A DNA stretch of 64,000 nucleotides from Promethearchaeota archaeon (GTDB lineage: Archaea; Asgardarchaeota; Lokiarchaeia; Sigyniarchaeales; SOKP01). The notes beneath the pieces are model-generated. The model was given only the letters and a program-made list of their open reading frames with translations. It was not told where the DNA came from and did no database searches. Each line of letters opens with the position of its first letter. Within the stretch, counting starts at the first letter, position 1. The translations under genes were made by a program, and so were the position numbers. Positions 48,541 to 60,216 of this stretch are shown piece by piece. The stretch spans positions 288,001 through 352,000 of the forward strand of contig JBHLOY010000001.1 of the NCBI GenBank assembly GCA_048939995.1, in the 5' to 3' direction.

Positions 48541-49725
48541 GTGGACAACATTCAGATAAAATATGCTAATCGGTTAGAACGTTTACCTAAGTATATTTTT
48601 GCTGCTATTGAAGAATTAAAGGAGCAAAAAAGAAGAGTAGGTATGGATTTAATATCCCTTGGGATTGGAGATCCAGATTTACCCACGCCAGAACTAATTA
48701 TTAATGAATTAATTCAACAGGTAAAAATATCTAAAAATCAGAACTATCCTTCAAGTATGGGTGAAAGTGATTTTAGGGAAGCTGTTGCAAGATGGAATAA
48801 AGTGAGATACTCTATAAATTTAGATCCCGCAACAGAAGTATCACATGTTTTGGGTGGTAAAGAAGGAGTAGCAAATATCGCAAGAGCTTTTATCAACCCA
48901 GGAGATTTAGTCTTATGTCCAAATCCAGGATACCCTGTTTATGAAAATGGAGCGACAAAATTGTGTGATGGAGAACCATATTTACTCCCTTTAACTAAAG
49001 ATAATGGTTTTTTACCTGATATTGAATCAGTCGATACTAAGCTTCTTAAAAGAGCAAAAATAATGTACTTAAATTATCCAAATAATCCCACAGGGGCAAT
49101 TGTTTCTGAAGAATTTTTAAAGAAAATAGTGGATTATGCGGAGGATTATAAATTCATCATAATCTACGACAATCCTTATTCTGAATTCACTTTTGATGAT
49201 TACATCGCACCGTCTCTTCTGCAGTTTAGTTTAGATCATGTTGAGATCAACAGTGCCTCAAAAATGTTTAATATGACAGGTTTCCGATGTGGCTGGATTG
49301 CGGGAAATGCGGATATTATTGAGGGTTTAAGAAATATAAAATCTCAAATCGATTCAGGAGGTCCAATCTTTATTCAAAAGGCAGTAATTAAAGGCCTTAA
49401 TGAATATAATTCTAATAAAAAACCCTTGATCGTCTCAGAAATCATGGAAGTCTATGAAAAAAGGCGAGATCTTTTAGTAAAAGGTCTTAATAACATGGGT
49501 TGGAAAACTGACACTCCTAAAGCGACATTTTATGTTTGGACACAAATACCAAAAGAAGAAGGAAGCAGTATGGAATTTACAAAGAGATTAATAAATGCCG
49601 GGGTAATTGTCACACCTGGTATTGGATTTGGAAAATATGGAGAAGGATTTGTTAGATTTGCATTAACTCAACCTCCTGAGAAAATAAAGGAAGCTTTAAA
49701 AAGAATTGAAAAAGTAATTAAATAA
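48541..49725 (+). CDS. Class I/II PLP aminotransferase (LL-diaminopimelate aminotransferase-like)
   Basis: LGIGDPDLPTP, GGKEG, NYPNNPTG, SASKMFNMTGFRCG, PGIGFG..GEGFVRFAL. Confidence 0.88.
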   Translation: MDNIQIKYANRLERLPKYIFAAIEELKEQKRRVGMDLISLGIGDPDLPTPELIINELIQQVKISKNQNYPSSMGESDFREAVARWNKVRYSINLDPATEVSHVLGGKEGVANIARAFINPGDLVLCPNPGYPVYENGATKLCDGEPYLLPLTKDNGFLPDIESVDTKLLKRAKIMYLNYPNNPTGAIVSEEFLKKIVDYAEDYKFIIIYDNPYSEFTFDDYIAPSLLQFSLDHVEINSASKMFNMTGFRCGWIAGNADIIEGLRNIKSQIDSGGPIFIQKAVIKGLNEYNSNKKPLIVSEIMEVYEKRRDLLVKGLNNMGWKTDTPKATFYVWTQIPKEEGSSMEFTKRLINAGVIVTPGIGFGKYGEGFVRFALTQPPEKIKEALKRIEKVIK

Positions 49726-49743
49726 AAATAAAATATTAATTTA

Positions 49744-49929
49744 TTATTTCTTTTTTGAATATTTACTCCTAAGGTATCCAATTCTTCTCTGATCCTCAAT
49801 TTCTATCTTTCCTTCTGAGGAATCAAAGTAGTCTAAAGAAATCATAACAGGAGCCCTATCAGAATCCCAATTTTTATAATAATCTAATATCATTTTAGGA
49901 TCTAAATTCTCTGCCGCCTTCCTCTGCAT
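49744..49929 (-). CDS. 61-aa hypothetical protein
   Basis: ATG at 49929 follows a perfect GGAGGTGA RBS; the tracked GTG at 49938 lies inside the RBS. Confidence 0.75.
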   Translation of the reverse strand: MQRKAAENLDPKMILDYYKNWDSDRAPVMISLDYFDSSEGKIEIEDQRRIGYLRSKYSKKK

Positions 49930-49959
49930 TTTTTTCACCTCCTTTTGTTTATTTATTTA

Positions 49960-50167
49960 TCACGCAGAGAGAGAAACCCTACCCCAACCTCTTTCTTAAA
50001 ATGTAGTAAAATATTATGTTGAGAGAACAAATCCCAAAAAATTATTAGAAAAAGGTCAGAAAAAGGGGTTTATTCTCTCTTCATAACACTACAACTGGGA
50101 TAAAGGCTCTCTTATAGCCTCCCCATGAGATTGTAGTATTATGTTGTGAAAATATCATTTTTATTGT
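49960..50167 (-). promoter_or_regulatory. Candidate bistable structured 5' leader (riboswitch/attenuator-like)
   Basis: Mutually exclusive long helices with G-U pairs favouring the minus strand; TATA-like TTTATAAG at 50197-50190. Confidence 0.55.
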
Positions 50168-50308
50168 TAGAAATATGAAATCGTGTAAACTTATAAATTT
50201 ACCCATTTCATTCCCATTTGTTAAATTATCCCGACATTTGACTACACAGTTTTGTATAAATCATATTGTTTAAGAATTCTTTAAAGAGACTAATAATTTT
50301 AATGAATT

Positions 50309-51735: not shown

Positions 51736-54700
51736 ATGGGATCCAATGAGAAGAAAAAATCTAGTGAGAGAATTGAACGTGCAACTACCTTTCTTACGAA
51801 ACTTTGGTGGTTTTTTGCTTTTTTAATAGGAATTCCAGTAACTATTTCCACTATTAGTTTCTATATTTTCAACTTCATTATAAGAGATATTTATATCTCT
51901 ATTGGACTTTCAGTGGTTGTCTATTTATTCGCCATTTTCATTTTTTATAAAAGTTTTGACCAATACAGAAATAGTCCTTTCTTTCTTAATAATAAAAACA
52001 ATTTTAGCGCCAGAATTCACACATTTTATATAATTAGTAGCCTTGCTTTAATAGTTACTCCTATATTTGTTTATATAACTCCTGAGGGATATTATTTTGA
52101 ATTACTTCCTTTAATTTCTTATTGTATTTTATATAATATCATTTATTTTTATTATTTTTATAAGCCTATTGAAGATTATGATATCTCTGAATCAAGATTT
52201 AAAAGTGGAATAAGTTTTAAATCATCGTTGAAAGAGTTTCACAATGTAGTGGTTATATTAAATTACATAATTCATATTATTTTCTTAACCTATACCCATT
52301 ACACGAGATTATCATGGCTATTTGCTTTAATATCAAATATTGTTTTCTATATCTACACAATATTAACAACAAGAAATTTAAGGAAGAACTTTAGAATTGC
52401 TATTGACAAAGGGGAATCTATTCTTAACTATTTAATAAAATTTAAGAAAAAGTTCACAATATCGATTATTAGCCTGTGTTTTGTGCTCTTAATTCAATTA
52501 CCATTTGATTTTTATCTAATAAATACCCTATCTGGTGCCATCTATACCTATTTTGATTATATTATGATCATATTCTATTCAATGATCTTCTTCTTTTTAT
52601 ACTTGAAACTACGGATATATGCCTCAATATATTACGAGAAGGAAGTCTTTAAATTATCTAATCAGGGAATGAATGAATCAAATGAAGATTCTTCAAGAAT
52701 TTTAATGAAATATCAAAAATGGAATATGATAATATCTCTGTTTTTCAGTATTTTCGTGCTTTTATTTTCATTAGGGATCAATTTTCCGGTAATAATCATT
52801 ATTTCCTTGCCAGCTATTATTATAGCAACGTATTATGAACAAAAGGCTAACTTTTGCCCAAAGAGATATAGTCGTTATATATTTTTATTCAATAGTATTA
52901 TTATATTAAGTTCAATATTATTTTTAGGAGTTTTTTATCTCGAACTTCAAATAATTCTATTTCTCCTAAGTATCTATTTGGATTTACAAATTTTTTCTCA
53001 TTATAAGTATTTTGATAAAAATAAAATCATTTTGACCCAACATTTAATAGCTTTCATATGCTTCTTAGTAATTTCTCAATTATTTTATCCTTTCATTTCA
53101 TTAATCTATTTAGGGTTAGCTATTGACCCTTTTTTGTTAAATCTTATAAATATCTTAATCTATATATTATTAGTAAGTTTAGCATTATTAGGTACCTTCT
53201 ATTATTTATATTTCCGTTACTTTAGAAAAAGTAAATGGAAGAATTTTAGTCTAATTCTAAATATTGTTATCTTTTTAATCGAAATTCTTTCATTTGCTCT
53301 TATAAATTTATATAGTATTTTTTCTGTAGAATTTAATGTATATATTAATTATGTTATAATAAGTGCTATTTTTCTACCAATAATTTTTGATTTGTTTATT
53401 GGGCTTAACTATCTCCTTGGAATCACATCTAAAAAAATTTCTTTGAAGGAATTATACTACTCATGTTGGATTTTAATTTTAACAATATTTAGTACCCTAC
53501 TTTATTTTTCCCTAAATAATTACATGTTCCTAATAGCCGATTTATTATATCTCTCTATTTTTTCCCTGATTTTACTTAAATTTGGAGTGAAAATTGAGCA
53601 AGTAAATATTAAGATCTTCAAAAAAATTGTGAGTCTTAACTCAATTTTTATCCTTATAGAGCTTTATTGCTTAACATTCTCAATTATTTTTTCGAATCTT
53701 ATTTTTTTAGAAATTTCACATAACCTTTTGCTTTCTTCTTATTTCTCATTGGTTTCAATCGCAATTTTAATAAATATATTCCTAAGGAAGATTATTTCAA
53801 TGGTAATAATAAAAATGATTAATTTGGTTAGTTTACTGTTTTCTACAGGAATAATTTTTTACAATTTATACGCTTATACTCTTGGATCTTATTTTGTTAT
53901 TATTATTCCGATTTTATCTTCATGCCTTTTCTTTTATATTTTCATTTTTTATCTTAAATCATTAATACATGGGTTTTTACCAAAAAACCTTTTTTTAATA
54001 AATACAATAATCATATTCATCTCCTTATCTCTTATACCGTCATTCTATGCATTAGAAAGCATTAAGTTAGGATTAACTGTTGATTTTGTTACAGTATTTA
54101 ATTCAACCCTTTACATTATTCTTGGAATATTGTTTTTTATCACTGTTTTCTCGCCACAATTTAAAATTAGAGAAGGAAGGAAGCGATTTGTACTATTTAC
54201 GCTGATTCTTCTTCTGTTCATTTTAGCGGGAACCACAGTTTTTTATTATTCAAATCTATTTTTATATACTACTTTGTTTGGAGAAACAGTTCCTTTAATC
54301 GCAAGCTCAGCTTTTCTTTTCGTTCCTTTAATATTACTATATAAGTATCAATTTATTAAAATTAAAACTAGTAAAATCCTTATCCTTTTAAACTATCTTT
54401 TTCTCTGGGGAGCGCTAATATCTATTCCAATTGTTTTTTGCTTAGAATTTATAAGATTAGGTAATTTTATTCAAACTTATCTCATGGTAACATTATTAGT
54501 TGTAATATTTTATGGGTTTTTAAAATCTCTATCCCCCATATCACAATCGCTTGAATTTAGAGCATCTTTTGATTATAAAATACGAATAATGCAAATATGC
54601 ATTTGGTTTTGTATTGCAGTCTTGATCTCATTAATTATTCCTTTTTTCTTTTTATTCCAACAATATTATTGGTTAAATCTATTTACAATAAGTTGTACAC

Positions 54701-57700
54701 TAATTCTTTTTTTCATCCTGAATATAGCAAATCTACCTCAATTAGAGAGTTTCAAGCAAAAAGTCTTTGAAAACAAAAGAAGCAAATTAGATTTTTATAA
54801 AATTTACAAAATTTATGAATATTATAAAAATATTATTTATTTTGGACTAATTTTTTCAATATCTTTCTTTTTTTACTCAATCTTCCAAGCTTTCAATCTT
54901 GTTTATATAATTTTTCAATCAACTGATAGCTTATTAACGGGTTCTTTTAACCTAGTAATTTTTTTGATATTTACTTTATTACTCTTACATTTTACAAGTA
55001 AGATAATTAGATTAGAATTTGTTAAAACAAGAGATATAATTGAATTAATAATTTGGTTAACTATAAAATTCAGTATTTTATTGTTCCTCTCTTTATTGCC
55101 CATTCAAATTTCAATTTCTAATAGAATTTTTCTAATAATCCTAGCGTTTGCTATTCAAAGCCCAATTACCATTAACTATCTCGATAAACATATGATGTTT
55201 TTAGAAAATACTAAGCTACTCATGAATAGAGTTATAGGATTTTTGTTTTTTGTAGCAGCTTTAGGGTTTATTATGGAAAATCTATGGAGTGTTAATATTA
55301 GTATATTATACTTTAATCAAAATATTCCAATTTTTATTGGCTTTCTTATATGTTTAATTTTTACATTTTTTAATTATTACATTATACATTTTAATGAAAT
55401 TATCCAAAAAGGAGGGAGATTTAGAATATACAGATTGTATCTAATCTCCTTTCTGTTATTAGTTCTATTTCTATTGATGAATATTCAATTTATTCTAATA
55501 TTTTTATTTGGTGTTCTTGTTATACTTCTTCGAAACAAGAATAGAAATTTTATATGGCATCTAATCAATTATTTCGTAATTAGTTTTCTTTGTTTAATTG
55601 AATTAAATCTTTTTATAATAAAATTTAATCTTCTTCCTTTTACTTATATCCACCCAGGAATTTTTGCTTGGATATATTTTATATCCTTTATTTCTATTTT
55701 ATTTATTTCAATTATTCTTAATTTTAAAAGAATCAATATTCTTGAGGAATTATTATTGGATTTTTTAATTCCTTGTTTAATTTTTACCTCGATTTTAATT
55801 TTCTTTCCGATTCCTATTTTTTATAACATCACAATTTCTATTACTATTCTACTATTTTTAATAAGCTTATTCTTTTATCGCAAAAAAGATGACATATATA
55901 TTTGGTTTATACGTCCATGCGCCTTATTATTTCTCTTTAACCTAATAAGTATTGGCTCTTATTTCATAATATTTAGTTTACCCATCTATCTTGAATACAA
56001 TCTGATATTAAGTTCCACCCTAACTTTTAGTATTATAGGTTTTTGCTTTGCTTTATTTTATCATAATTTAGAAAAGAAATTTAAAAGTAAAGTAATATCA
56101 ATTGTTCTCATCTTAAGTGTCATCAGTTCCTTTATATTTTCTTACCTAATCATAGAAATATCATTTACATTAGCTTTTATTTTTCCATGGTTGATTGCTG
56201 GAAATATGGCTATCATCTTATTATATATCTCCATTGGAATTTATCAATGGAAAATATCATGGGCAATTTGGAAATCAGGGTATTGGATTTGGATATTTGT
56301 TCCGATCGTTAATTATCTTTTAATCGCTCAATCATTCGCAGGAATTGATGTTTATACAAATGCTCTAAATTTATTTGGTTTAAACATTTATGGTTCGTAT
56401 TTAATAACGTTTGTCATTTGTTTATTATTATCATTACCCTTCTGGTATACATGGATTAAAGACCACTTTAATGTAGTTTTGTTTACGATTTGGGGTTTTA
56501 GTTTGTTTTTAATATTTTGGTTTAGTCAAAATGCTTTCTTTGGATTTGATATATTAATTATTTTATCATTTCTGGGAATTGCTATAATATTCCTTATGCC
56601 AATTTTTTATAGATTAGGTTTTTGGAAAATTCTATCTATTCTTTGGCTAATATTCACTTCACTTCTAACCATTTTTATAACATTCATTTTTGTTGGAATT
56701 AATTTCCCTTTAAACCAGATTATTCCATTTGATTTAGTCGTGGTTGGATTTCTTTTCATAGTATTTTCCTTTTTTCCAAATTTGAAAGCTATGAAATACA
56801 TAATATTGATTACAGCTTACTCCGTAGCCATGATTGGTATTTTTTGGATACTATATATCCTTATGGTTTCAATAACCTATAATATTCCTGTATCAATCAA
56901 TATCTCTTTCATTATAATTGGTTTTAGTCTATTTAGTTCACGTATATTGAAATTAAATAAAAAATTATTCAATTTTCTAATTTCTACAATGTTAACTGTG
57001 AATTTTTCACTTTTAACATTCTTCACTTTTATCATGATCCCTCATTTTGAATTTTTCGCGTTATTTTTAGCTATAACTGTTTGTGGAGGATCTCTTCTTG
57101 TATTTAATCGATTTCGAATGTTTTCTCCGATTAAAATGATCATTCCTTTATCTATCTTATCTATGGGAATATCCTTAACATTCTCTACTTTAATCTATAT
57201 TTTTCTACCAAATTCTTTTTTCCTTATATCTGCTGCGTTCATTTCGATAATTTTATTGATTAATTATCCCGTTTTAAAATATATTCGCCACATTTTATGG
57301 TATTCTGTTCCTTTGCCTTTTTGTTTGTTTATTTTGCACTTTTTATCATTACTAGGGCCGTTCCAATCAATATTTAATTTAACCTTGGTTGGATTGATTT
57401 TATATACCTCGATATTTCAAATACTTACGAATTTATTTTATGGTAAAGCCAGGAGTATAAATCTTTTAGCTTTTGTTTTAAATTCTACCTATATATCCCT
57501 ATTTATTGCTATTCTCAGTCCCTTATTTATCGTCTATAAGATTCTTGAATTTTTTATAATTTGGTCAATTTTGATTTTATTATGTATTAGATATATAGAG
57601 AAGGGGGGTCAAGAACTTCTCAAAAATAAGGCAATTACCATTTTACTTAAAATTAGTAGTTATATAGCATTATTCCTCTACCTTGAAATTTCTCTTCTAA

Positions 57701-60216
57701 TTACAGGTATATTAAATGAATTTATAGTGCCTGAATTCACGAGTAGTGTTTTGATTTTTTTTGGAACCTTACTTTTATTATCATTACTAGATATTTTCCT
57801 TATTAAGAAAGTTAGTAGCAAGTTAGTTTATCCAATTAATGTGATTTGCTACATTTTAATTTCAATTTATTTATTTATATTTCTAAATCGCTTTTTAGCT
57901 ATAGATATACAATTTATTTTCTTAAATCTAATCATATTATTGGCGATGCAATTTTATACCATAAAAATCATATTTTCTCTTCTAAATCAATTAGAACGTT
58001 ATGATAGAGAGAAGTTAACCTCTTTACAAAAGATTTTTCAAACGATTTTACTTAATACTATATTCGTTGTTATTAGTTTATTTGGATCATCTTATTTCAC
58101 ATCAATATTCCTAAATGTTTCACCATTGCTTAGTGGATTCTCTGCTATTTTCTTGTTTCTAATGATTTTTAGTTTTCTAATGTTTAATCTGAATCAGTTA
58201 GTAAAGATTAGGTTTAAGCTAAAGGTGTTATTTGTTTATTATCTAATATTTATAGTAAGTTTTGTTTCATTTTTTACCTCTTATATTATGATTTTCAATC
58301 TTATTACTATCTTATATCTGAGTCTATTTTCTCTTATTATCACTAGTTTGTTATCTTACTTTATCTCCTTGCTAAACAAAATATATATAGAAAAATTAGG
58401 GACTGAGATGATAAAGAAAGTTTATTCATTTTTACAATTTATTCTTTACTTAGAAATTTCATTGATTTTCTATAGTCAATTTTCCGTTTATTTCAATATA
58501 TTCGAAAGTATATTAACGTCTCAAATAGTCCTAAGTTTAATTTCCTTAATCGAATTAAAATTTATAAAAAAAGTAAAAGCCTCCTATGTTCTTCTTATTC
58601 ACACGATTAGCTTTTTTAACATTAGTTGGGCTCTATACGTTATTATATTTCAATTTACTTACAATTATTTTAATTTAAATATCATTTTCTTCATTTTAAT
58701 GCAATTTTATACGAATCACCTATACTTTATTACTAAAGCTGAATTTAATCCAACAAAAAAACCTAATTTTAAGAAATGGAAATTAATTAGACAAAAAATA
58801 ATTGGATCTTGTTTCTACCTTGCTTTATTAGTATATATTGTGCAGTATTTAATTCTATTTATTCCTGATATTCTGCTAGTAGTTTTAATCTCAAGTATAT
58901 TACTTCATGGTTTAATGTATTTAGATAAATATGTGTCTAAATTTTTAGCTACCTGGTCAAAATATCTAATTATATTTTCTGGGATCTTAATTATAGGTGT
59001 TTCTATTTTGTATTCGTTGAATTGGATCTTAACTATTTCTATACAAATCATTCCTATAACAATACTCATAGTTTTACTTGAAGTAACCTATTTGATAAGA
59101 TTATTACATCTGTGGAATATTTTAAAAAGTGAGTTTGCTAAGAATCGAAATTACCTCATTATCTTATTCTATTTAGATATCATAACTTGGCCTCTTTTTT
59201 ATTTAAACTTGCAAATTTATAATTTTCTGAATATCTTGTTGATATTTTTTATAATATTAATAATAATTTCTCTGATTGATATTCGGATAAAAGCCATTAA
59301 ACCGAGTCTAAGAAGAACAATCTTTAAGGTTGGTTATACAATTTTTGATATAATATTATCAATACAGATATATACGTTATTAGAATACATAATTCAACCA
59401 AACTTACCATTAAATCTTTCAATAGCAGGTCTAGTATTTATTATAGTAATTGGTTTTTTAATAAAGCCTTTTAAAAAGCGTAGACTTATTTCATTCTTTT
59501 ACTGGTTCTTTATATATCTATTCATTAGCCTTATCATTTTTTACGCCTATTTGAATCTTTGGAGTTTTACAGTAGTTGTATTTGGAATACTATTATATCC
59601 GTTTATTTTCATGCTTGAGGAGTTGAGAGAATTATTTAATCATTTCTTAGATTATCTTCAGAAGCTTATAATCAAAATTAAATATATCATAATAGCTGGT
59701 TATAAAAAATTGATTAAATTCATTAAAGACAACTTCAAGATAGTCCGAATTTTAATTTGTATAATCTTTGGAATAATGATGGGTTTTATCTTTTCTGAGT
59801 TTGTTTTAGTCATTTTAAATCTATATCACTCAATTCTGTTAGCAATAGCTTCTTTTGGGATTATTTATGCTTTTACTGACTATTTATGGTACTTTTTTTA
59901 CGTCAAAAAGCTTGGAGATGTAAGACAAATATTCAGACAAAAGTTAAAGATATTTATAATTATTTGGATTAGCTTCTCCGTCTTTATATTTACATTAATA
60001 CTACCCTATGTTGGTTCTGTCCTTTATTCATTATTTCTTATCTTAATACCATTTTGGGGTTTAGGATCAATTTTAATCTGGGTGGTTAATCGAAAAGAGG
60101 CTAAACAAAAAATTTCGGTAAAAACTAGGTTCTTTATAACCTTGTCTACAATAGTAATATTTGTTATTTGGGTAACAGTTATTCTAATTTGGTACTTTTT
60201 TGAAATTCGTGTTTAA
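51736..60216 (+). CDS. Giant polytopic membrane protein of unknown function (2826 aa)
   Basis: 8.5-kb stop-free frame in AT-rich DNA; continuous TM segments with Lys-rich loops. Confidence 0.88.
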   Translation: MGSNEKKKSSERIERATTFLTKLWWFFAFLIGIPVTISTISFYIFNFIIRDIYISIGLSVVVYLFAIFIFYKSFDQYRNSPFFLNNKNNFSARIHTFYIISSLALIVTPIFVYITPEGYYFELLPLISYCILYNIIYFYYFYKPIEDYDISESRFKSGISFKSSLKEFHNVVVILNYIIHIIFLTYTHYTRLSWLFALISNIVFYIYTILTTRNLRKNFRIAIDKGESILNYLIKFKKKFTISIISLCFVLLIQLPFDFYLINTLSGAIYTYFDYIMIIFYSMIFFFLYLKLRIYASIYYEKEVFKLSNQGMNESNEDSSRILMKYQKWNMIISLFFSIFVLLFSLGINFPVIIIISLPAIIIATYYEQKANFCPKRYSRYIFLFNSIIILSSILFLGVFYLELQIILFLLSIYLDLQIFSHYKYFDKNKIILTQHLIAFICFLVISQLFYPFISLIYLGLAIDPFLLNLINILIYILLVSLALLGTFYYLYFRYFRKSKWKNFSLILNIVIFLIEILSFALINLYSIFSVEFNVYINYVIISAIFLPIIFDLFIGLNYLLGITSKKISLKELYYSCWILILTIFSTLLYFSLNNYMFLIADLLYLSIFSLILLKFGVKIEQVNIKIFKKIVSLNSIFILIELYCLTFSIIFSNLIFLEISHNLLLSSYFSLVSIAILINIFLRKIISMVIIKMINLVSLLFSTGIIFYNLYAYTLGSYFVIIIPILSSCLFFYIFIFYLKSLIHGFLPKNLFLINTIIIFISLSLIPSFYALESIKLGLTVDFVTVFNSTLYIILGILFFITVFSPQFKIREGRKRFVLFTLILLLFILAGTTVFYYSNLFLYTTLFGETVPLIASSAFLFVPLILLYKYQFIKIKTSKILILLNYLFLWGALISIPIVFCLEFIRLGNFIQTYLMVTLLVVIFYGFLKSLSPISQSLEFRASFDYKIRIMQICIWFCIAVLISLIIPFFFLFQQYYWLNLFTISCTLILFFILNIANLPQLESFKQKVFENKRSKLDFYKIYKIYEYYKNIIYFGLIFSISFFFYSIFQAFNLVYIIFQSTDSLLTGSFNLVIFLIFTLLLLHFTSKIIRLEFVKTRDIIELIIWLTIKFSILLFLSLLPIQISISNRIFLIILAFAIQSPITINYLDKHMMFLENTKLLMNRVIGFLFFVAALGFIMENLWSVNISILYFNQNIPIFIGFLICLIFTFFNYYIIHFNEIIQKGGRFRIYRLYLISFLLLVLFLLMNIQFILIFLFGVLVILLRNKNRNFIWHLINYFVISFLCLIELNLFIIKFNLLPFTYIHPGIFAWIYFISFISILFISIILNFKRINILEELLLDFLIPCLIFTSILIFFPIPIFYNITISITILLFLISLFFYRKKDDIYIWFIRPCALLFLFNLISIGSYFIIFSLPIYLEYNLILSSTLTFSIIGFCFALFYHNLEKKFKSKVISIVLILSVISSFIFSYLIIEISFTLAFIFPWLIAGNMAIILLYISIGIYQWKISWAIWKSGYWIWIFVPIVNYLLIAQSFAGIDVYTNALNLFGLNIYGSYLITFVICLLLSLPFWYTWIKDHFNVVLFTIWGFSLFLIFWFSQNAFFGFDILIILSFLGIAIIFLMPIFYRLGFWKILSILWLIFTSLLTIFITFIFVGINFPLNQIIPFDLVVVGFLFIVFSFFPNLKAMKYIILITAYSVAMIGIFWILYILMVSITYNIPVSINISFIIIGFSLFSSRILKLNKKLFNFLISTMLTVNFSLLTFFTFIMIPHFEFFALFLAITVCGGSLLVFNRFRMFSPIKMIIPLSILSMGISLTFSTLIYIFLPNSFFLISAAFISIILLINYPVLKYIRHILWYSVPLPFCLFILHFLSLLGPFQSIFNLTLVGLILYTSIFQILTNLFYGKARSINLLAFVLNSTYISLFIAILSPLFIVYKILEFFIIWSILILLCIRYIEKGGQELLKNKAITILLKISSYIALFLYLEISLLITGILNEFIVPEFTSSVLIFFGTLLLLSLLDIFLIKKVSSKLVYPINVICYILISIYLFIFLNRFLAIDIQFIFLNLIILLAMQFYTIKIIFSLLNQLERYDREKLTSLQKIFQTILLNTIFVVISLFGSSYFTSIFLNVSPLLSGFSAIFLFLMIFSFLMFNLNQLVKIRFKLKVLFVYYLIFIVSFVSFFTSYIMIFNLITILYLSLFSLIITSLLSYFISLLNKIYIEKLGTEMIKKVYSFLQFILYLEISLIFYSQFSVYFNIFESILTSQIVLSLISLIELKFIKKVKASYVLLIHTISFFNISWALYVIIFQFTYNYFNLNIIFFILMQFYTNHLYFITKAEFNPTKKPNFKKWKLIRQKIIGSCFYLALLVYIVQYLILFIPDILLVVLISSILLHGLMYLDKYVSKFLATWSKYLIIFSGILIIGVSILYSLNWILTISIQIIPITILIVLLEVTYLIRLLHLWNILKSEFAKNRNYLIILFYLDIITWPLFYLNLQIYNFLNILLIFFIILIIISLIDIRIKAIKPSLRRTIFKVGYTIFDIILSIQIYTLLEYIIQPNLPLNLSIAGLVFIIVIGFLIKPFKKRRLISFFYWFFIYLFISLIIFYAYLNLWSFTVVVFGILLYPFIFMLEELRELFNHFLDYLQKLIIKIKYIIIAGYKKLIKFIKDNFKIVRILICIIFGIMMGFIFSEFVLVILNLYHSILLAIASFGIIYAFTDYLWYFFYVKKLGDVRQIFRQKLKIFIIIWISFSVFIFTLILPYVGSVLYSLFLILIPFWGLGSILIWVVNRKEAKQKISVKTRFFITLSTIVIFVIWVTVILIWYFFEIRV

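Follow-up and report, generated by a model that had tools for sequence, protein, structure and literature searches.

The 5′ leader of a 61-codon gene in a Promethearchaeota archaeon is, as judged by comparative sequence analysis, a real and family-wide regulatory element, an archaeal variant of ribosome-mediated attenuation whose output we predict below. Its trigger is most likely a ribosome that reads the supply of charged tRNA. We assign a probability of about 0.72 to the reading in which it gauges charged branched-chain tRNA, with valine (together with leucine and isoleucine) sensed by the copy described here. This copy lies on the minus strand of a 64,000-nt stretch of genomic DNA (the window; assembly GCA_048939995.1, contig JBHLOY010000001.1, positions 288,001 to 352,000), and coordinates are window positions unless a contig or locus is named. 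The comparison set comprised 85 distinct leaders, all homologous and all drawn from a single Promethearchaeia (Loki) family.

Architecture of the leader

A sequence-only reading of the window had described a bistable leader between a TATA-like box and a small ORF. All of the strands that it quoted were found where it had placed them, and the TATA box (50197-50190), the Shine-Dalgarno (SD) sequence (49942-49936) and the ORF (49929-49744) agree with its description. Its list of features captured the helices and overlooked an upstream ORF (uORF), a closing helix P1, the U-tracts and the start-codon pairing. With these added, the features are:

50200-50217 (minus): tandem ATGGGAA-N4-ATGGGTA repeat adjoining the TATA box, a candidate transcription-factor site
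50190-50197 (minus): TATA box TTTATAAG, conserved
50081-50158 (minus): uORF for a leader peptide of 25 codons, no SD, ending F-I-P-V-V-V-L-TGA
50146-50153 (minus): 5′ strand of P1, codons 2-5 of the uORF; partner 49964-49956
50082-50143 (minus): helix A (50143-50131 with 50094-50082) and its variable interior, wholly within the uORF
50084-50095 (minus): control codons GTT GTA GTG TTA (Val Val Val Leu)
50067-50079 (minus): switch strand X1, immediately 3′ of the uORF stop; partners Y1 (in hairpin P3) or Y2 (in helix C)
50036-50064 (minus): pyrimidine strand X2 and loop U-tracts (50053-50049 and 50041-50036)
50021-50034 (minus): Y1, the 3′ arm of P3, proposed antiterminator
49966-49999 (minus): Z (49999-49985) and Y2 (49983-49966), the 3′ arm of helix C
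49961-49971 (minus): anti-start strand, able to pair with the start-codon region 49929-49921
49936-49942 (minus): SD sequence GGAGGTG, conserved
49744-49929 (minus): ORF of the 61-aa protein, of no known family, with an AUG start in the window
48541-49725 (plus): convergent gene for an aminotransferase, LL-DAP aminotransferase-like (below the cut-off), outside the transcript

When the genome was searched with a covariance model built from the small-protein leaders, one further site emerged (E 2e-4). The gene immediately after it scores above the cut-off for archaeal leucyl-tRNA synthetase (LeuRS):

contig C38 of this genome (G000), 43849-43626 (minus): leuS-type leader (loci L147, L148-L197), a Leu-run uORF before archaeal leuS

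Upstream regions of leuS in the same family carried a Leu-run uORF on the same scaffold in 44 of 44 cases, and none of six from other families had a Leu-run leader. A model combining both sets detected the leader in 26 of 40 sampled genomes of the family (11 of 13 genera) and in none of four genomes sampled from other families.

Conserved helices and the switch

The 268-nt region has a minimum free energy of -70.6 (z -4.6), and none of 200 shuffled sequences was as stable. Helices A and C (the latter taken as a whole), which form State 1 of the sequence-only reading, were each significant in all 85 small-protein leaders, and recurred in 39 and 44 of 44 leuS leaders, respectively. The inner part of helix C was significant in 70/85, and the tree shows 17 two-sided changes for it where slid registers give 0-4; the outer part, the competitor of P3, was 86% paired against 23-65% when slid. 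P3 (X1:Y1, the core of State 2) was found in 85/85 leaders with 99% of cells paired and in 43/44 leuS leaders. It is the sole helix of the RNAalifold consensus, and it co-varies between the small-protein and leuS paralogous sets. Since P3 and outer helix C are both conserved, X1 has two mutually exclusive partners. A second strand, the 3′ arm of helix A, had likewise been credited with two partners. Here the proposal failed, the pairing with a second CAUAAU..ACUACA copy having p 0.08 in the window and being significant in 19/85 leaders. The expectation of two near-isoenergetic states was borne out on folding: the state ensembles lie 3.2 kcal/mol apart in the window, with a family median of 3.2 and a 10-90% range of -2.5 to 8.4. 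What survives of the original proposal is its center, a conserved two-state 5′ leader linked to the 61-aa ORF, in that homologous leaders keep both pairings of X1. P1, which closes the leader, was significant in 70/85 (6 two-sided tree changes, 0-1 when slid). Its 3′ strand directly precedes the SD, and it is not conserved in the leuS copies.

We next folded the leaders with a ribosome-sized block, using a 27-nt footprint of 12 nt before and 15 nt from the P site, as reported for archaeal ribosomes (PMC7261190). The probability of nascent P3 was about 0.9 with the A site at least three codons before the uORF stop and 0.01 at the stop, where the ribosome covers X1. The leuS leaders responded alike. 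P3 also forms with no ribosome present. In these computations, ribosome position would thus choose between mutually exclusive helices, as in an attenuator.

The upstream ORF and its promoter

The uORF passes through helix A, and its stop (50083-50081) adjoins X1. Its AUG occupied the same alignment column in 85/85 leaders, one displaced by a codon, and the frame was open in all 85 over 20-32 codons; the other two frames had stops in 35 and 83 of the 85, and shuffled sequence keeps the frame open 23% of the time. Indels, placed on a tree made from the main ORF alone, were multiples of three in 23 of 29 cases within the uORF, compared to 0/18 and 2/31 in the downstream non-coding parts. The non-triplet cases include the switch between two reading classes, both open: in 44 leaders the stop lies at the foot of helix A, and in 39 the arm is read in another frame and the stop lies within X1. 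Stop codons interchange among TAA, TGA and TAG. The peptide itself is weakly constrained (354 synonymous and 654 non-synonymous changes), and therefore the act of translation outweighs the product. By this evolutionary signature, the element would be a translated short leader ORF. The idea that the uORF is joined to the main ORF by read-through, frameshifting or bypass was rejected, as the frames are not kept, and a start at the GTG within the SD was rejected on the same ground. Sensing of Trp or Cys was also set aside: each occurs as a lone codon, which 9 and 14 of 44 representatives lack. The Trp and Pro codons of the uORF pair with each other.

The distance from the TATA box to the uORF AUG is 30-37 nt in most homologues and 39 nt in the window copy. 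The standard spacing of archaeal promoters is the basis for placing a leaderless start, and from it we infer that the uORF is leaderless or nearly so; a genome-wide TATA-to-ATG histogram was too flat to prove such a start. The tandem ATGGGAA repeat is present in most homologous promoters and missing from L132 and the basal genera, and its second half-site is inverted in one clade. The same tandem arrangement stands upstream of a 67-aa Cys/His-rich ORF (contig C6 near 72886, minus strand). A regulon defined by the repeat was rejected, this genome holding a single convincing additional site.

Control codons follow the downstream gene

In the small-protein leaders the share of Ile, Leu and Val was 0.55-0.60 over the last nine uORF codons, 0.08-0.11 over the earlier codons and 0.30-0.32 in shuffled sequence, a clustering of putative control codons of the kind an attenuator would have. 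The last nine codons averaged Val 2.0, Leu 1.7 and Ile 1.8 in the window's reading class, Ile 3.0 in the frame-switched class, Leu 5.9 and Val 1.0 in the leuS leaders (the uORF of this genome's leuS ends in five Leu codons) and Val 4.5 and Leu 3.2 in 17 basal small-ORF leaders. Because the control codons sit in helix A, pairing constrains them too; the four codons outside helix A have a mild Ile/Leu/Val enrichment (0.38). Codon identity follows the downstream gene: Leu before leuS, Val before the basal small ORFs, and Ile-rich ends before 480-aa Fer4-FrhB proteins with a TrmB-like HTH (L203, L207, L218), possibly a redox-sensing regulator. That one scaffold carries different codons before different genes would be hard to explain by pairing alone, with the reservation that these related copies are not independent. 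Bacterial-type leuS in two other genera (L202, L204, L209) has the same leader with Leu runs, and therefore the leader serves both types of synthetase. At L207 the uORF apparently starts at TTG.

In the basal genera, the first gene behind the Val leader is an unannotated ORF of 45-50 aa ending in PAE-x(n)-IAW:

L127, L131, L134, L201, L206, L208, L210-L212, L214-L216: loci of the 45-50-aa ORF family

At eight distant small-protein loci the leader stands about 400 nt farther up, ahead of such an extra 45-aa ORF, and its uORF ends in plain Val runs. The family was not found in this genome, and kinship between it and the 61-aa proteins was rejected, the likeness not being significant. At one locus (L205:217-1455, minus strand; E 0.03) an acyl-CoA dehydrogenase lies behind a Val-run leader. 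In this genome ileS, a valS-like gene and three ilvB-like genes are without such a leader. A Phe-rich uORF of 27 codons with a TTG start and hairpins occurs near 7511 of contig C28 (minus strand); it is unmatched by the leader models and so has a different scaffold.

The controlled gene serves the sensed amino acid in the leuS paralogue, and no such link to an amino acid is known for the 61-aa protein. Valine sensing by the window copy also has points against it, namely the shortness of its run and the 39 homologues that use the other, Ile-rich frame. The likeliest of the alternatives, itself improbable, builds on these points: the uORF would still be read in the window but would no longer be a sensor of one amino acid, reporting instead the general supply or speed of ribosomes, and the small protein would be a stress-induced factor. 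The shortened runs and the frame switch in two genera, the weak constraint on the peptide and the hiding of the uORF start by P1 in the finished RNA all suit it, and there is a precedent in a Sinorhizobium uORF that reports general ribosome supply or speed before a DUF1127 gene (PMC12218461). It accounts poorly for the confinement of Ile, Leu and Val to the stall zone and their depletion elsewhere, in both frames, and for the plain Val runs of the basal orthologous loci. We prefer branched-chain sensing.

U-tracts, start-codon pairing and the proposed mechanism

In 70/85 leaders, two or more U4 tracts lie in the loop of P3. U-tract spacing of the type used by FttA was present in 81/85 small-protein and 37/43 leuS leaders, compared to 0-9 in flanking windows; this spacing is the geometry reported as optimal for FttA (PMC11616081). 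The loop U-tracts are accordingly presented as a candidate FttA/aCPSF1 signal. A hairpin followed by a U-run was also sought, and U4 tracts follow P3 or helix C in at most one third of leaders. Neither helix has a conserved 3′ U-run, and the leader is therefore not a bacterial intrinsic terminator. The pyrimidine loop was rejected as an anti-SD (11/85, not above composition).

The main start codon, identified in the 85 homologues by frame and spacing (SD+6 to 10), is TTG in 32, CTG in 30, ACG in 15 and ATG in 8; a small baseline from the genome after the same SD gave ATG 19, TTG 8, GTG 3 and CTG 1. Hence a perfect SD is apparently followed by a TTG, CTG or ACG start in 77 of the 85 homologues, and ACG is retained in several lineages despite low G+C. 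Pairing of the anti-start strand with the start region was significant in 35/85 leaders against 1-4/85 for three controls, and the strand's own partner was the better one in 71/85. In the window itself p was 0.21, and the tree count is weak (6 vs 0-5). Pairing of Y2 with the SD alone was weak (15/85) and was discarded. Opening the ribosome-binding site (RBS) costs 2.9 kcal/mol in the helix C state, 5.0 with P3 and 5.3 with a ribosome at the uORF stop, where blocking upstream sequence tends to raise RBS pairing non-specifically.

A second alternative, less probable than the first, keeps the same sensing and dispenses with premature termination: the output would lie in translation or mRNA stability only, through an anti-start hairpin or cleavage of the completed mRNA. 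The anti-start pairing above controls, the mostly weak start codons and the lack of a hairpin-plus-U-run terminator speak for it. The leuS leaders speak against it: RBS pairing occurs in just 1-3 of 44 and there is no SD, yet the core and the U-tracts are kept. As the leuS copies are without RBS pairing, termination or cleavage is a likelier shared output than occlusion of the RBS. A translation-level layer may coexist with termination.

We propose that attenuation operates as follows. With Val-tRNA plentiful, the ribosome would reach the uORF stop and sit on X1, and P3 could not close; the exposed U-tracts would then be cut by FttA/aCPSF1, terminating transcription (off). With Val-tRNA scarce, the ribosome would stall at least three codons earlier, X1 would pair with Y1 and enclose the U-tracts, and with P3 closed RNA polymerase would read on (on). 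After read-through, helix C, which masks the tract, and P1 would form and leave the SD open. In the small-protein copies a second, weaker layer is envisaged, in which occupation of X1 frees the Y2/P1 strand to pair over the weak start codon. The sign of control was assigned in this way because leuS is expected to rise on starvation. As P3 forms without a ribosome, the off state depends on the dwell of the ribosome at the stop. It is conceivable that coupled ribosomes keep FttA away, which would invert the sign; L205, with its catabolic acyl-CoA dehydrogenase gene, would fit control of the opposite sign. We give even odds to the fuller picture, that of FttA/aCPSF1-dependent archaeal attenuation by a portable Leu/Val/Ile module, an Asgard branched-chain regulon and a 61-aa valine-starvation factor.

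A small-molecule riboswitch or RNA thermometer, with the uORF incidental, is very improbable. The two near-isoenergetic folds and conserved strands would be at home in either. A scan against Rfam matched no riboswitch or T-box model (best E 0.11, well below the gathering scores), the interior of helix A, a possible pocket site, is freely replaced and always in frame, and the codon runs track the downstream gene. The ligand, temperature or antisense trigger suggested from the sequence alone finds no support, a translated uORF with gene-dependent codons explaining the conserved features.

The 61-aa protein and its neighbors

The 61-aa gene is present as a single copy in 96 of 134 genomes of the family and in none of 26 genomes of other families. 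It is under purifying selection (2274 synonymous and 1462 non-synonymous changes, mostly synonymous in the core). The protein is charged and hydrophilic, and the gene is chromosomal and syntenic. We found no Pfam match, no PDB match and no usable ESM Atlas match; the structure model has low confidence (pLDDT 68), and a search among representatives returned family members only, with P0013 a chance match. The long structured leader before a small ORF had also suggested a type I toxin-antitoxin leader or a dispersed repeat, which is scarcely credible for a hydrophilic, chromosomal, single-copy protein that is syntenic across the family and is no small hydrophobic toxin, and for a scaffold whose every recurrence is a gene leader, that of an essential synthetase among them. 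A MITE-like repeat, named in advance as fatal to the proposal, is excluded, as the two related sites in the genome are both fixed gene leaders.

Of about 100 loci, 94 have the aminotransferase as the next gene; it is convergent, and the transcript therefore comprises the leader and the small ORF. At L054, L058, L059, L213 and L217 the 61-aa gene and the aminotransferase are separated by a second small-protein gene, which is diverged and carries a leader copy of its own. Window positions 51736-60216 (plus strand) encode a 2826-aa multi-pass membrane protein that is almost wholly hydrophobic, and at 12 loci a relative is encoded upstream of the element.

Comparison with known systems

The E. coli ilvGMEDA, leu and pheST leaders are the classical leader-peptide transcription attenuators. 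The present leader shares with bacterial attenuators, among them Streptomyces leuS (PMC1262725) and the Corynebacterium ilvB-II uORF (PMC10272879), a short uORF in which codons for the sensed amino acid are clustered, alternative helices whose choice depends on where the ribosome stands, and use before an aminoacyl-tRNA synthetase gene. It differs in its archaeal host, in a uORF that appears to be nearly leaderless and has no SD, in U-tracts that lie in the loop of the first helix with no hairpin-then-U-run terminator, and in one scaffold retuned to Leu, Val or Ile with no Rfam or sequence match. Its off state, unlike that of the classical systems, depends on the ribosome's dwell at the stop. 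We do not file it as a classical attenuator because the terminator of that class was not found. In the poly-Cys attenuators reported from mycobacteria (10.1101/834739), the next gene is likewise controlled by a leaderless uORF that contains a run of one amino acid; the amino acids, the domain and the RNA fold differ, and a conserved helix switch and U-tracts occur here. The LEU element of actinobacterial leuA (PMC1262725) has a Leu-run uORF, pseudoknot-or-hairpin alternatives and no terminator. Its Leu codons pair with the SD, reportedly without control, whereas here they pair inside helix A. Changes of branched-chain codons in the Streptomyces ilvB leader had no effect, and Streptomyces uORFs rich in such codons do not behave as classical attenuators (PMC1262725).

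As of 2021, archaea were stated to have no known mechanism of transcription attenuation or antitermination (PMC8448881); our literature search, of incomplete coverage, found no later report, and so far as it reaches a ribosome-based amino-acid gauge has been described for bacteria only. If correct, our reading would supply a compact and testable case of attenuation in the lineage closest to eukaryotes, would show that Asgard archaea exploit the coupling of transcription to translation for regulation, and would give two small-protein families a physiological cue. A reporter assay would have its internal controls in the naturally occurring Leu, Val and Ile variants. The reading would also link a uORF to a nuclease of the CPSF73 family. 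The U4 tracts of the leader have the optimal spacing of FttA/aCPSF1 termination signals, and Lokiarchaeota aCPSF1 is reported to be functional; the enzyme is known to act at transcript ends and internal sites, and a conditional, ribosome-gated role in a 5′ leader is what we predict here (PMC11616081, PMC13675443).
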